Assembly (NCBI GenBank): GCA_943788675.1
Contig: CALSRE010000001.1
Span: 455,919 to 519,918 of the forward strand
Direction: 5' to 3'
Source of the DNA: an uncultured bacterium
GTDB lineage: Bacteria; Fidelibacterota; Marinisomatia; Marinisomatales; Marinisomataceae
Length of the DNA stretch: 64,000 nt
The notes under the pieces are model-generated. The model saw only the letters and a program-made list of their open reading frames with translations, made no database searches and was not told the DNA's origin. Below are positions 45,029 to 48,732 of this stretch, piece after piece. The translations under genes were made by a program, and so were the position numbers. Numbering within the stretch: position 1 is the stretch's first letter; each line of letters starts with the position of its first letter.

Positions 45029-46873
45029 ATGTGTGGTATAGTAGCATATAAAGGATATAAAAACTGTTATCCAATTCTATTAAATGGACTGCATCGTCTA
45101 GAATATAGAGGGTATGATTCTGCTGGTGTGGCTTGCTTGACCAAGCACGGTAAATTGTCTATCACAAAAAAAAGCGGAAAAGTAAAGCATTTAGAACAGC
45201 TTTTAAAAAACAAAGACATTATCCAAGATTGTAGAGGTTCAGGAATCGCTCATACTAGATGGGCAACTCACGGTAAGCCTAATCAAATTAATTCTCATCC
45301 GCATAAAGATCAATCGGGCGATATTGTTCTAGTTCATAATGGAATTATTGAAAATTATGATCCTATAAAAAAGTTTTTACAATCTAAAAAAGTAAAATTT
45401 AAATCTGAAACCGATACTGAAGTTTTAGTTCAGTTAATCGGATATTTTTTTCAAAACGTAAAGCTAGATTTTCAACAATCTGTAAGAGCAGCGCTTCAGC
45501 GTGTTGATGGCGCTTATGGTATTGTTGTATTAAATAAAAAATCTCCTGATATGATGATTGCAGCTAGAAAAGGAAGTCCTTTAGTTTTAGGTATTAAGGA
45601 TAAAGAATTTTTTGTTGGAAGTGATATTTCGCCTATAGTTAAACATACTCAAAATATAATATACCTTGAAGATGCTCAAATGGCAATTATTGATGGCAAT
45701 GACTACAAAATTACTTCAATTGATAAAGATGTAAGTTTGCCTAAAAAAGTTGAAAAAATTGATTATAAAATAGACGACTATGACAAGGGAAAATTCAAAT
45801 TTTTTATGCACAAAGAAATCCATGAACAAATTGAAACAATAAATAATACAATCAAAGGAAGAGTTAATAAAGATGGCATTCTCTTACAAGGCTTGTTTAA
45901 ATATTGGCCAGCAATTAAGAGAGCTGATAAAATTTTTATTACAGCATGTGGAACTTCATGGCATGCTGGATTGATTGGAAAAAATTTAATTGAAAGATTT
46001 GCTGAGGTCCCAGTGCATGTAGAATATGCTTCAGAATTTAGGTATAACAAAACATTGGTAGATAATAATAGTGTAGTAATCGCTATATCTCAATCTGGAG
46101 AAACCGCTGACACTCTTGCAGCTATTCATAAAGCAAATGAAGCAGGAGCTATTACAGTTGGAATATGTAATGTTCCAGGTAGTTCTGTTTCTAGAGAAAC
46201 AAATTGCGGAGTTTTTACAAGGTGTGGTCATGAAGTGGGAGTTGCTTCTACTAAAGCTTTCACAGCTCAAATAACCGTTTTGTATTTATTAGCGCTTAAA
46301 TTAGGTCGCTCTAGAAATTTATTGACTAAAAATTCTGTTAAAGCACACCTAGATTACAAAAATGCTATCAAAAAAGTAAAGTTAGTTTTAAGAAAAGAGT
46401 TAGATATCAAAAAAATTGCATTGAAGTATAAAAATGCATCTGACTTTTTGTATTTAGGTAGAGGGTTGAACTTCCCCGTTGCTCTTGAAGGTGCTTTAAA
46501 GTTAAAAGAAATATCATATATACATGCCGAAGGGTATCCAGCTGCAGAAATGAAGCATGGACCAATTGCCTTGGTTGATGAAGATATGCCAAATGTATTT
46601 ATTGTACCAAAAGATAAAACTTATGATAAAATTATATCTAATATTGAAGAGATAAAATCCAGAAAAGGAAAAATTATTATTATTACAGACTCTAGAGATA
46701 AGATATTGAAAAATCTCGCAAATGATTTGATTCTAATTCCTAAAACAAATCATTATATGTTTGTCGTTTTAGCAACAATAGTACTCCAATTATTTGCATA
46801 TTATATAGCAGTTAGTAAAAAAATTAATGTTGATCAACCTCGAAATTTGGCAAAATCTGTAACCGTCGAATAA
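45029..46873 (+). CDS. glmS: Glutamine-fructose-6-phosphate aminotransferase
   Basis: MCGIV, LEYRGYDSAG, HTRWATHG, SQSGETADT, PRNLAKSVTVE. Confidence 0.98.
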   Translation: MCGIVAYKGYKNCYPILLNGLHRLEYRGYDSAGVACLTKHGKLSITKKSGKVKHLEQLLKNKDIIQDCRGSGIAHTRWATHGKPNQINSHPHKDQSGDIVLVHNGIIENYDPIKKFLQSKKVKFKSETDTEVLVQLIGYFFQNVKLDFQQSVRAALQRVDGAYGIVVLNKKSPDMMIAARKGSPLVLGIKDKEFFVGSDISPIVKHTQNIIYLEDAQMAIIDGNDYKITSIDKDVSLPKKVEKIDYKIDDYDKGKFKFFMHKEIHEQIETINNTIKGRVNKDGILLQGLFKYWPAIKRADKIFITACGTSWHAGLIGKNLIERFAEVPVHVEYASEFRYNKTLVDNNSVVIAISQSGETADTLAAIHKANEAGAITVGICNVPGSSVSRETNCGVFTRCGHEVGVASTKAFTAQITVLYLLALKLGRSRNLLTKNSVKAHLDYKNAIKKVKLVLRKELDIKKIALKYKNASDFLYLGRGLNFPVALEGALKLKEISYIHAEGYPAAEMKHGPIALVDEDMPNVFIVPKDKTYDKIISNIEEIKSRKGKIIIITDSRDKILKNLANDLILIPKTNHYMFVVLATIVLQLFAYYIAVSKKINVDQPRNLAKSVTVE

Positions 46874-46942
46874 CACTTTTCCTGTCGACAAATTCAAAAA
46901 AATCAATAGATAGAACGTAACCTTTCGTAAATTGTAGGGTGA
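46856..46942 (+). repeat. Cassette left arm copy 1 (glmS end, promoter-like region, GTG start)
   Basis: 87 bp with 6 mismatches to 47555-47641 (offset 699 bp). Confidence 0.92.
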
Positions 46943-47415
46943 AAAAACTATTACCCATACTTATATTAATCTTGATAGGGTGTTCTGGAGATGAAGAAAA
47001 ATGGATTGGTAAATCCGGAGACTTAGTTGAACGAAATGGAAAAGTATATGAAAAAGATTATGGTATAACCAAACAATCTTTTGTTCTTAAACCTTATTCC
47101 GGGAAATATAAAAAAGAAATATTTGAGTACCTTGAAAAAGGAACTATAGTAAATAGTACCAAAACTGGAAAGTTCATTCATTTATATCCCGATGGTAGTC
47201 TTAAAATGGAAGGGTTTTATAATAGTCTTGGTATGAAACATGGTTATTTTACTTTTTACTACAAGACAGGTGAAATTGAAATGGAAGGTTTGTTCGAGAA
47301 TGATTTAGAACAGGGATTTTGGGGACTCTTTTATAGAAATGGACAAAAAAAAGGTGAACTAATTTTTGAAGACGGAGTTGAACAACAGAATAAAATTCTA
47401 AACTCACAATACTAA
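46939..47415 (+). CDS. MORN-variant (YwqK-like) repeat lipoprotein, alanine-free
   Basis: Lipobox LIG-C; Y..G..(K/E).EG.(F/Y)..G..(H/Q)G repeats; no Ala in 158 aa. Confidence 0.82.
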   Translation: MKKLLPILILILIGCSGDEEKWIGKSGDLVERNGKVYEKDYGITKQSFVLKPYSGKYKKEIFEYLEKGTIVNSTKTGKFIHLYPDGSLKMEGFYNSLGMKHGYFTFYYKTGEIEMEGLFENDLEQGFWGLFYRNGQKKGELIFEDGVEQQNKILNSQY

Positions 47416-47572
47416 TCACTCAAACCCCAACCGAAATCCTTTATAGTCCCAATTGATTAATTCTTCATTAAATTCATATGTGTTTGGATTAAAACTATAC
47501 GAAACATTTAACTCGAAGAACAAGAAGGGTTTATTTTCACCCTCCAATAATGTGTCTGTGACAGTCGAATAA
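47413..47572 (+). repeat. Cassette right arm copy 1, ending in a glmS-end copy (TCT GTG ACA GTC GAA TAA)
   Basis: Homologous to 48571-48732; the first ~60 bp also recur at 49690-49751. Confidence 0.92.
47480..47572 (+). CDS. Candidate 30-aa micro-ORF ending in SVTVE
   Basis: GTG 5 nt after TAAATT; VFGLKLYETFNSKNKKGLFSPSNNVSVTVE*; frame conserved in the second copy. Confidence 0.45.
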   Translation: MFGLKLYETFNSKNKKGLFSPSNNVSVTVE

Positions 47573-47641
47573 CACTTTTCTCGTCGACAAATCCAAAAAA
47601 ATCAATAGATAGAACGTAACCTTTCGTAAATTGGAGGGTGA
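47555..47641 (+). repeat. Cassette left arm copy 2
   Basis: Near-identical to 46856-46942; supplies the GTG start of the HNH gene. Confidence 0.92.
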
Positions 47642-48570
47642 GTTACAATCAAAAATTTATTGTTGGAAATTTATATTCAAGAAAATCAATTTTAGGTCTA
47701 ATTGATGAATCAACTTTTTCTTCAAGTAGAGAAGGGATATTTTATTGTCTAAACTCTTCAACAACTATCTTATTTACTGATTTGGACAAGTCTCAAAAGA
47801 AAGAACAATTTATTTATAATGATTATTTCGAAAATGACTTCTTTCATTGGGATAGTCAAAATAAACAACATTTAAACACACCAAGAATTCAAGAGATTGT
47901 TAATAAAGAAGTAGAAGTGATACTTTTTTGTAGAATAAAAAAATCAATTAAAGGTAATACTCAACCATATATTTACTGTGGAAGATTGGAATTTTTTCAA
48001 CACGAAGAAGGAACAAAGAATCCAGTTCATATAATTTTTAATAATATTGATTATAATGATGAGTTGTTATTAGATAATCAAAATTATAGAAATATTATCG
48101 AATGGAAATCGGAAAGTAAGATAACAGAGGTAGATTTATCAAAAAAATTATCAGATAAAAGAAAAAAGAACTATAAAAAACCTTCTAAAACTGAACGAAA
48201 AGGAATGGTTACAAACCGTGTTGGTCAGGGTTGGTATAGAACAGAGATACTAAAAAAATGGGACTACAAATGTTCTGTGACAGGTTGTGAAATTCAAAAG
48301 ATTTTAATTTCATCACATATTGTACCATGGAGAGATTCAAATGAAGAGGAAAAACTTGATGTTGACAACGGTTTATTACTGTCCCCTGATCTTGATGGTT
48401 TGTTTGATAAGTATCTTATATCATTTAATGATGATGGTTCTATGTTAGTTTCTGATAAAATAAATATTATTGAATTATCAGAACTAGGAATCAATATCAA
48501 TATGAAACTTAGATTTGTAAATGATGGTATGAAAAAATATTTAAAAAGACATAGAGAAAAACTTCTTTAG
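47638..48570 (+). CDS. DUF3427-like domain plus HNH endonuclease (putative modification-dependent restriction nuclease), alanine-free
   Basis: N-terminal YNDYF...FHWDSQN...LFCR...YIYCG; C-terminal R.GQ..YR, CSVTG, SHIVPW, NGLLL.P..D.LFD..LISF; no Ala in 310 aa. Confidence 0.82.
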   Translation: MSYNQKFIVGNLYSRKSILGLIDESTFSSSREGIFYCLNSSTTILFTDLDKSQKKEQFIYNDYFENDFFHWDSQNKQHLNTPRIQEIVNKEVEVILFCRIKKSIKGNTQPYIYCGRLEFFQHEEGTKNPVHIIFNNIDYNDELLLDNQNYRNIIEWKSESKITEVDLSKKLSDKRKKNYKKPSKTERKGMVTNRVGQGWYRTEILKKWDYKCSVTGCEIQKILISSHIVPWRDSNEEEKLDVDNGLLLSPDLDGLFDKYLISFNDDGSMLVSDKINIIELSELGININMKLRFVNDGMKKYLKRHREKLL

Positions 48571-48732
48571 TAATCAAACCCCAACCGAAATCCTTTATAG
48601 TCCCAATTGATTAATTCTTCATTAAATTCATATGTGTTTGGATTAAAACAATACGAAGTGTGTAACTCAAAAAATAGGAAGGGTTTCTTTCTGTTCTCAC
48701 CCTCCATAGAGTATAGTGTGACCGTAGAATAA
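48571..48732 (+). repeat. Cassette right arm copy 2, ending in a glmS-end copy (AGT GTG ACC GTA GAA TAA)
   Basis: First ~75 bp identical to copy 1, then diverged, including a 6-nt indel. Confidence 0.9.
48634..48732 (+). CDS. Candidate 32-aa micro-ORF ending in SVTVE
   Basis: VFGLKQYEVCNSKNRKGFFLFSPSIEYSVTVE*; paralog of 47480-47572. Confidence 0.45.
   Translation: MFGLKQYEVCNSKNRKGFFLFSPSIEYSVTVE

Follow-up and report, generated by a model that had tools for sequence, protein, structure and literature searches.

The closest known systems to the locus described here, a tandem array of one-gene cassettes directly behind glmS in an uncultured marine bacterium of the Marinisomataceae (GenBank assembly GCA_943788675.1, contig CALSRE010000001.1, positions 455,919 to 519,918 of the forward strand; this 64,000-nucleotide stretch is called the window, and its first base is position 1), are the composite islands of staphylococcal cassette chromosome (SCC) and pseudo-SCC elements and the ssrA islands of Dehalococcoides. 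SCC and pseudo-SCC elements insert at the 3′ end of orfX/rlmH, carry terminal inverted and direct repeats, include forms that carry no recombinase and join into tandem composite islands (PMC6243372). The Dehalococcoides islands likewise lie in tandem behind an essential single-copy gene, between direct repeats of the ssrA 3′ end, and are connected with DsiB/DsiA (McMurdie et al. 2011, PMC3146451). There the 3′ end of the integrase gene overlaps attL, and the authors suggest that full function may be confined to the circular form; islands without an integrase are read as cis-mobilisable and as joined by accretion (PMC3146451). Serial integration at one site, which pushes older elements deeper and leaves partial target copies and remnants, is also reported in the accessible part of the account of tycheposons in Prochlorococcus (bioRxiv 10.1101/2020.12.28.424599).

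Our reading of the locus in the window, to which we assign a probability of roughly 0.72, is that a small composite island has grown up where a large serine recombinase (LSR) has its attachment site, within the final codons of glmS. Marinimicrobia (SAR406) are abundant, uncultured bacteria with genomes of ~1 Mb and few recognisable mobile elements, and to our knowledge the routes by which they exchange genes are largely unknown. The glmS locus would provide one concrete route, in which a recombinase lands in the universally conserved glmS end while the essential gene remains unharmed, and one-gene cassettes, here encoding an HNH nuclease and a surface lipoprotein, are left behind or moved at glmS. 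The window was compared with the genomes of 37 other species of the genus (38 including the window's own genome, G000), and individual genomes are given by such labels only where they have to be told apart.

Organisation of the array behind glmS

The glmS gene of the window is intact, and its last five codons and stop form an 18-nt sequence, the core, of which two further copies lie downstream. All three cores encode SVTVE-stop; every unit is bounded by these direct repeats of the glmS 3′ end, and the reading frame of the target is restored. The 15-base pattern of non-wobble positions, GTNACNGTNGARTRR, occurs three times in the window against 0.03 expected, a count that none of 100 shuffles reached, and has no further match in the whole 1.02-Mb genome, which is assembled in 2 contigs.

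As measured by the spacing of the repeats, the two units are 699 and 1160 bp long, and each runs from a left arm through one gene and a right arm of ~140 nt to an 18-nt copy of the glmS end. The left arms are identical at 64 of 68 positions and the right arms at 122 of 144, and both cargo open reading frames (ORFs) begin at a GTG that falls in the final bases of the left arm and end with a stop that abuts the right arm. An earlier description made from the letters of the window (the sequence-only reading) had proposed exactly these two units, with their arms, one GTG-to-stop gene apiece and three SVTVE-stop copies, all of which we confirm; its placing of the start of homology to glmS after the last Ala codon needs a small correction, as the homology begins after the following Lys codon, i.e. 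at Ser. Within the genome the left and right arms occur at this locus only. A third right arm, partial (79 nt, 87%), stands 3′ of a 295-aa MORN gene, and this gene with its partial arm is possibly an older, decayed cassette.

Each junction carries inverted boxes of 12 nt, with a C-box before the displaced cores and a G-box at the cargo start. The G-box of left arm 2 is 100% complementary over its 12 nt to the C-box of right arm 1 (47537-47548), and the 9-nt core of the boxes has four exact copies in the 64-kb window, all within the glmS locus. A G-box is found again after the last core (site 2), in the same register as the G-box that follows glmS in recombinase-bearing elements of two other genomes, G023 and G390. 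The hairpins detected at the locus are the C-box/G-box dyads, one of which, across 48690-48755, has a z score of -3.15. Folding of the right arm is not unusual (z 0.07 and -1.78), positions 46700-50000 gave no match to Rfam at E ≤ 1, and a scan for promoters and terminators found a number of sites no higher than in shuffles.

Three further observations concern the distribution of these parts. The G-box doubles as a start site, given that both cargo genes of the window begin at a GTG inside it, and in the glmS region of G016 another GTG-start gene is preceded by the inner half of a left arm together with its G-box (89% over 46 nt, locus 935-980). A 247-bp unit in G029 (locus 598-844, in glmS orientation) has a 64-aa ORF and two bounding cores and neither G-box nor C-box, which leaves the core as the sole feature common to all units. 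Finally, a module of 55-79 nt at the proximal end of the right arm (window 47416-47494, 48571-48650 and 49693-49750) stands directly after the stops of unrelated genes, likewise in G028 and, 17 nt past the stop, in G029; six other species have it in total, at times without C-box and core, and it neither gives a fold signal nor matches any Rfam family.

The first cargo gene encodes a 158-aa lipoprotein-like protein with a weak match to MORN_2 (E 5.9e-6, below the cut-off), and the second a 310-aa protein with DUF3427 and an HNH_2 nuclease domain that resembles a restriction enzyme (PADLOC HNH, E 1e-25). Restriction-type HNH nucleases are found as cargo behind glmS in three species (G000, G015 and G019; window 47638-48570 and positions 617-1486 and 1025-2284 of the two other loci), and there are hints that the glmS site gathers defence genes. 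The coordinates of all features are collected in Table 1, in which the labels SMR-like and Lpo-like for the framework genes are our own provisional names.

Table 1. Features of the glmS locus in window coordinates, followed by detached recombinase end-piece ORFs in other genomes (genome:contig:positions)
Feature	Position	Strand	Basis
glmS, target gene, 614 aa, intact	45029..46873	+	ORF
Core 0, working glmS end (SVTVE-stop), 18 nt	46856..46873	+	
Left arm 1, 68 nt; G-box ATTGTAGGGTGA at 46931-46942 holds the cargo GTG start	46874..46941	+	
Cargo 1 gene	46939..47415	+	ORF, GTG to stop
Right arm 1; proximal module ~47416-47494; C-box TCACCCTCCAAT at 47537-47548	47416..47554	+	
Core 1, displaced copy of the glmS end, junction of units 1 and 2	47555..47572	+	
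Left arm 2, 68 nt; G-box ATTGGAGGGTGA at 47630-47641	47573..47640	+	
Cargo 2 gene	47638..48570	+	ORF, GTG to stop
Right arm 2; C-box TCACCCTCCAT at 48697-48707	48571..48714	+	
Core 2, distal copy of the glmS end	48715..48732	+	
Terminal G-box stretch; ATGGAGGGTGGA at 48736-48747, 3 nt past core 2	48733..48747	+	
Open frame of 70 codons through G-box, core 2, C-box and right arm 2	48567..48779	-	
295-aa MORN-repeat gene and third, partial right arm (49693-49769)	48805..49769	+	
Conserved right-hand framework closing the variable region in relatives: 107-aa membrane protein and 595-aa gene (SMR-like, Lpo-like)	50607..52740	+	tblastn
Detached end-piece ORF	G259:C1:30995-31288		
Detached end-piece ORF	G257:C4:145738-146067		
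Detached end-piece ORF	G263:C95:6105-6449		
Detached end-piece ORF	G057:C119:2759-3061		
Detached end-piece ORF	G365:C35:102774-103241		
Detached end-piece ORF	G390:C93:5537-5806		

Crossover within the core and variation among relatives

The way in which half-cores are shared between loci indicates a site-specific insertion whose crossover falls within the core. In G017, the right half of the distal core and the flank behind it equal the glmS end and flank of G011, which has an empty site, and the right half of the glmS-proximal core of G017 travels with the cassette. Copies of a cassette with a 125-aa gene are identical at 41-49 of 49 positions to the right of the core centre, against 22-24 of 69 positions to its left if they have different left neighbours. 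In the window, the right half GTCGAATAA together with the left arm is common to cores 0 and 1 and to G019, and the left half of core 2, AGTGTGACC, is linked to right arm 2, as it is in G029. Such linkage fits two successive insertions at the glmS-proximal site, from which we infer that unit 2 was inserted first.

Insertion would then be a conservative recombination with its crossover inside the 18-nt core, in which the incoming DNA would give the glmS end a new right half, and the old right half, together with the element's own left half-core, would be pushed downstream. A later insertion at the glmS-proximal site would shift the earlier unit distally and so produce the tandem order. The comparison supports the proposal of the sequence-only reading that the units were inserted site-specifically into the glmS 3′ end, each bringing a replacement end. 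Its further suggestion that the cores had once been glmS ends elsewhere is half right, as a crossover inside the core leaves the distal copy with the old right half of the host and gives the current glmS end an imported one.

A homologue of the C-terminal 199 aa of the glmS product was present in 25 of the 37 other genus genomes, and from these 25 we fetched the glmS end with up to 6 kb downstream, the glmS stop lying inside the locus in 24. Extra plus-strand cores occur downstream of glmS in six of the 24 (two in G029 and one each in G015, G017, G021, G023 and G006, the last with a decayed stop), and the minus-strand control gave one match in the 146 kb of all loci. The right arm was found in 6 of 36 genus genomes searched, always just downstream of glmS, and was absent from all 24 genomes searched from other genera of the order. 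Cassette content behind glmS is variable across the genus, and eight sites are empty: in six genomes glmS lies within 4-21 nt of a 148-aa PEMT/ICMT-like gene, and in two more it leads straight into the 595-aa gene of the right-hand framework. The distance from glmS to the 595-aa gene ranges among relatives from 2 nt to ~4 kb. The draft contigs of G032, G036, G012 and G035 end at or within ~1.2 kb past the glmS stop, as would be expected if the glmS site were variable or repeated in the sampled populations.

Parts of the cassettes are more alike between species than the genes around them. Right arm 2 and its counterpart in G029 are identical at 139 of 144 positions (96.5%), compared with 79.5% for the last 600 nt of glmS and 71.3% for the next conserved gene; left arms 1 and 2 match that of G019 at 62 and 64 of 68 positions (91-94%), compared with 75.7% for glmS; and the 125-aa cassette gene, whose membrane-protein product matches VanZ weakly and below the cut-off, shows 95-97% identity among four species that are 77-95% identical in glmS. 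A one-gene unit of ~540 bp has the same two boundaries in G017, G021 and G006, and G029 has a three-core array of two units that have no arm in common. The right arm contains a minus-strand ORF, and in a large protein collection the versions of it called by gene callers fall into 31 protein clusters. As judged from these protein predictions, their N-terminal extensions run through the core into at least 12 right-flank contexts, with 12 of the 31 clusters reading into the antisense of the 148-aa gene, and their ends show many cargo sides. These comparisons indicate that cassettes move between species.

The same evidence bears on the simplest alternative, in which the glmS end and the spacer downstream of it were duplicated locally in tandem and the genes then replaced, without any mobile element. 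The confinement of the arms to this one locus within the genome would suit such an origin, which we nevertheless consider extremely improbable, because other species have the arms and cores next to other cargo, at 91-97% identity as against 76-80% for the flanks, because empty sites exist, and because a recombinase element, described below, uses the same boxes. The sequence-only reading had noted that a simple duplication should show arms only here, invariant gene content and no empty site; the genus instead has arms with other cargo in several species, and sites with no cassette at all.

Large serine recombinase elements at the glmS end

The enzyme behind insertion at the glmS site is most likely an LSR. 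In G023 (Marinimicrobia bacterium SCGC AAA160-B08) a 552-aa protein with Resolvase, Recombinase and zinc-ribbon domains is encoded on the opposite strand and abuts the glmS stop, which is followed by two bases and then by the G-box as in the window. At the right end of this element, 13.8 kb on, there is a C-box, six bases, a core copy and a flank like that of the empty sites in G036 and G018. The element also encodes a 73-aa HTH_17 excisionase-like protein and a 228-aa serine recombinase; since neither capsid nor terminase was found among the 10 ORFs searched, we do not call it a prophage. Pfam and PHROGs gave no family for most of its genes, for the right-arm ORF of the window or for the 64-aa ORF of unit 1 in G029. 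The register of C-box and core, TCACCCTCCAW-N10-GTNACNGT, has four matches in the 38 genus genomes, namely right arms 1 and 2, G029 and the attR of the G023 element, and the attP inferred for this element by taking its two ends as halves has dyad symmetry at 24 of 34 positions, which none of 1000 shuffles equalled.

The best NCBIfam matches of the G023 enzyme are CcrB, YneB, CcrC and XisF, all far below their cut-offs, and it is not a Ccr equivalog (55 bits against a cut-off of 900). With a profile of seven LSR relatives, matches at E 1e-20 or better were obtained in 17 of the 401 genomes searched across the phylum. Eleven further loci were fetched, in six of which, with hosts from three other families, the LSR gene is convergent to glmS and abuts its end; a seventh has an LSR end-piece alone, right after glmS. 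In G390 the G-box has the same four-base spacing from the stop as in G023 and at site 2 of the window, and the recombinase reads through it in another frame, which argues that the box is a DNA site rather than a protein motif. A locus with a 632-aa recombinase in G392 was set aside for want of a glmS core.

The gene for the G023 enzyme is split by its own attachment site. Its ORF (locus G023:C3:86500-93142) passes through the G-box and the core, read in antisense, to stop 11 codons into glmS, and at the opposite end of the element an ORF of 110 codons opens in the core and C-box. A 643-aa protein, P0033, which shares 96% identity with the G023 enzyme across the C-terminal 253 residues used as query, runs in a single frame through G-box, core and C-box into the right-end ORF of G023. 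The joined P-core-P′ form therefore occurs naturally, whether as a circle or a tandem junction. Two others, P0034 and P0036 (707 and 706 aa), include three tandem att units in frame within the ORF.

The right arms of the window appear to derive from the second piece of such a gene. Their minus-strand frame is open in all three copies, and the other two frames hold several stops. The ORF matches the part of P0033 beyond attP (E 1e-4), and P0026, a metagenomic protein that is 83% identical to the window ORF, matches the C-terminus of P0034 (E 3e-16). On account of this homology, and as integration cuts the LSR gene in two, we interpret the distal right arm as the decayed 3′ end of a recombinase gene; the proximal 55-79 nt have no counterpart in the recombinase end. 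Stand-alone ORFs of ~100-160 aa whose match to the recombinase profile is confined to its final ~100 positions are detached end-pieces of the kind seen in G023 (Table 1), and the one such locus inspected, that of G259, has no glmS core nearby.

We propose that each unit in the window is a non-autonomous, integrase-less descendant of an LSR element. To the left the unit would keep the box of the P′ side, the G-box, and to the right it would keep the P side, consisting of the C-box and the relic of the recombinase 3′ end, with a single cargo gene between the two. An LSR would have made this array, and the mini-cassettes would be mobilised as small units by an enzyme provided in trans.

Several observations weigh against this proposal, the first group of which concerns the boxes. 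The G-boxes of the left arms lie 57 nt after the core, compared with 2-3 nt in the recombinase elements, a displacement of 55 nt, and sites 0 and 1 are in consequence unlike working P′ half-sites of an enzyme of the G023 type; the 57-nt block showed no likeness to antisense translations of the P′ sides from six other recombinase subfamilies. The array is without a canonical attR, and site 2 looks like a complete attP. Its G-box stands in place of 15 nt of flank that are found in G036, G018 and G014, and we conjecture that a microhomology deletion in a former recombinase element is one route to such a site. The window's own sites show no significant dyad symmetry (98, 173 and 501 of 1000 shuffles equalled it). 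Among longer proteins, a weak search found no LSR ORF fused to a right arm of the window type.

Boxes that are out of register would be expected if the units were fossil cassettes, i.e. full LSR elements that integrated serially, were hollowed out by deletion and are now spread by homologous recombination anchored in glmS, the arms and the downstream genes, the recombinase not acting on mini-cassettes at all. We judge this explanation unlikely. In its favour, the right arms are pseudogenised recombinase 3′ ends, the same cargo can be joined to right ends of different kinds (for the 125-aa gene, type A in G029 and another, C-rich type in G021), the proximal right-arm module is also found without the distal part, and G019 has a left arm and neither right arm nor extra core. 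However, the switch in identity lies inside the 18-nt core and not in the flanks, whereas homologous exchange should, on expectation, co-convert the neighbouring part of glmS, and the boundaries of the ~540-bp one-gene unit are constant in G017, G021 and G006.

The second group concerns the enzyme, which our proposal of an LSR origin would have to draw from outside the cell's own genome. That genome has no serine recombinase (PF00239) and no relative of the G023 enzyme, in agreement with the integrase-less array of the sequence-only reading, and an LSR of the G023 type is present in 1 of the 38 genus genomes. Viral contigs contained no match to the attP-like pattern, to the G023 recombinase or to an alignment of seven recombinases. 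Matches to C-box and core in metagenomes, three stretches in all, were rejected as chance, being unrelated coding DNA of high GC.

A third group comes from the sequencing runs, for which the data are contigs, and contig depth is not copy number. Exact-match contig depth in run X1, which may itself be the source sample, was 13.9 and 14.6 for the cargo genes as against 29.9 and 29.2 for the flanks, a difference that could reflect alternative alleles or a sub-population without the cassettes. The tandem order of the units rests on one assembly, and the contigs include no circle junction or excised mini-cassette, circle and tandem junctions being indistinguishable there. One X1 contig has the glmS end directly before 48715, which makes it an empty-site allele with a full core 2; this allele fits a native G-box, and leaves unexplained why the left half of core 2 is identical to the cassette-linked half. 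Contigs in X1, X7 and X8 skip ~48807-49766 (joint sides of 24-37 letters), as if the MORN gene and its arm had been inserted or deleted. Several backward or skipping joints have sides under 45 letters, and relatives or repeats may cause them; several cargo-gene bins are uncovered in runs X5, X7 and X8, and nothing is inferred from these gaps.

Halved depth over the cargo is also what an assembly chimera would give, with units 1 and 2 being alternative alleles of two co-existing strains that were joined through their similar arms, and no X1 contig among those listed bridges right arm 1 to left arm 2. We regard such a chimera as quite improbable, given that the arms can be told apart (by 4 differences in 68 positions for the left pair and 22 in 144 for the right pair) and that the genome is assembled in 2 contigs. 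Tandem arrays are moreover seen elsewhere, in the three-core array of G029, whose two units have no arm in common, and in the three tandem att units of P0034 and P0036.

If the LSR reading is extended, the locus might even be a serine-recombinase counterpart of the integron, at work in uncultured marine bacteria with streamlined genomes, in which one-gene cassettes that retain just the two LSR attP half-sites are taken up, stacked and reshuffled at the end of glmS by the enzyme of a ~14-kb element acting in trans, and the full-length 643-aa form of that enzyme exists only in the excised or joined state. We offer this as a tentative and rather doubtful idea. If true, an integrase gene that is cut by integration would be a built-in directionality switch, and the split gene in any case provides a testable idea on how the direction of recombination is controlled.

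Comparison with known systems

In an integron, promoter-poor single-gene cassettes accrete at a fixed site beside a resident gene, the newest being nearest the site. The glmS array works like one in these respects, and differs in that there is no IntI, no attI and no apparent site of the attC type (the hairpins found are the C-box/G-box dyads), the recombinase is not resident, and the sites are double-stranded dyads of the serine-recombinase type with a core of coding sequence. The description of the array as integron-like in the sequence-only reading should therefore be given up as regards the enzyme, since no IntI lies nearby and the linked enzyme is an LSR. Tn7 inserts downstream of the glmS stop with a short target duplication and does not duplicate the coding end. 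Both exploit the conserved 3′ end of glmS as a place where insertion is safe, but here the coding end of glmS is duplicated and no Tns genes were found in the genome.

That the locus is nevertheless an integron with IntI and attC, or a Tn7-type system with TnsD and attTn7, can be put down as barely credible, even though arrayed one-gene cassettes are integron-like and glmS is the classical target of Tn7. The three tyrosine recombinases (PF00589) of the genome lie elsewhere and none is encoded in the fetched glmS loci; two of the three are Xer-like by eye, and the third is a 365-aa integrase ~125 kb away. No match to PF15978 (TnsD) or PF00665 (rve) was found in the genome, the TnsD search being a weak one, as its control was positive in only 1 of 14 control genomes, and the boundary of the units lies inside the coding end, which is duplicated. 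The 365-aa tyrosine integrase lies outside the window (G000, C1 ~376200-377400), beside what appears by eye to be a tRNA 3′ end; an exonuclease-like ORF follows this tRNA-like end, and the whole may be a separate integrative element.

A search of the literature, supplements not covered, found no account of an LSR attB at the glmS end, a general review aside, or of glmS elements in Marinimicrobia, and none of the papers listed on integrative elements contains glmS. SCC elements resemble the glmS locus in their use of the 3′ end of a conserved single-copy gene, in the repeats that come with each element, in the stacking of elements without a recombinase and in their large serine recombinases. 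In contrast to SCC, the target here is glmS and not rlmH, the host is a marine Marinimicrobia with a genome of ~1 Mb, the units have one gene and 0.25-1.2 kb where SCC measures tens of kb, and the recombinase ORF crosses attP and is cut on integration.

The Dehalococcoides islands, as far as the available text describes them, share nearly every principle with the glmS locus, including the combination of a large and a small serine recombinase, there part of the integration module, which in G023 are the 552-aa and 228-aa proteins. On the same partial account they differ in having an RNA gene as target and islands of many kb, as against a protein-coding end and single-gene cassettes here; it is because the target is a protein-coding end that the glmS repeats differ at synonymous sites. 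The form of the ORF that runs across attP is directly seen here, in P0033. Tycheposons, in the accessible part of their description, share with the glmS locus a streamlined marine genome and the same growth of islands, and differ in their tRNA targets, in their tyrosine recombinases (910 of 937) and in their much larger size.

A serine integrase that recognises the glmS end could serve as a landing-pad tool, comparable to the use that is made of glmS with Tn7. As a system, the cassettes behind glmS are far smaller than islands of the SCC and ssrA type, and approach integron cassettes in logic with an enzyme of a different class.

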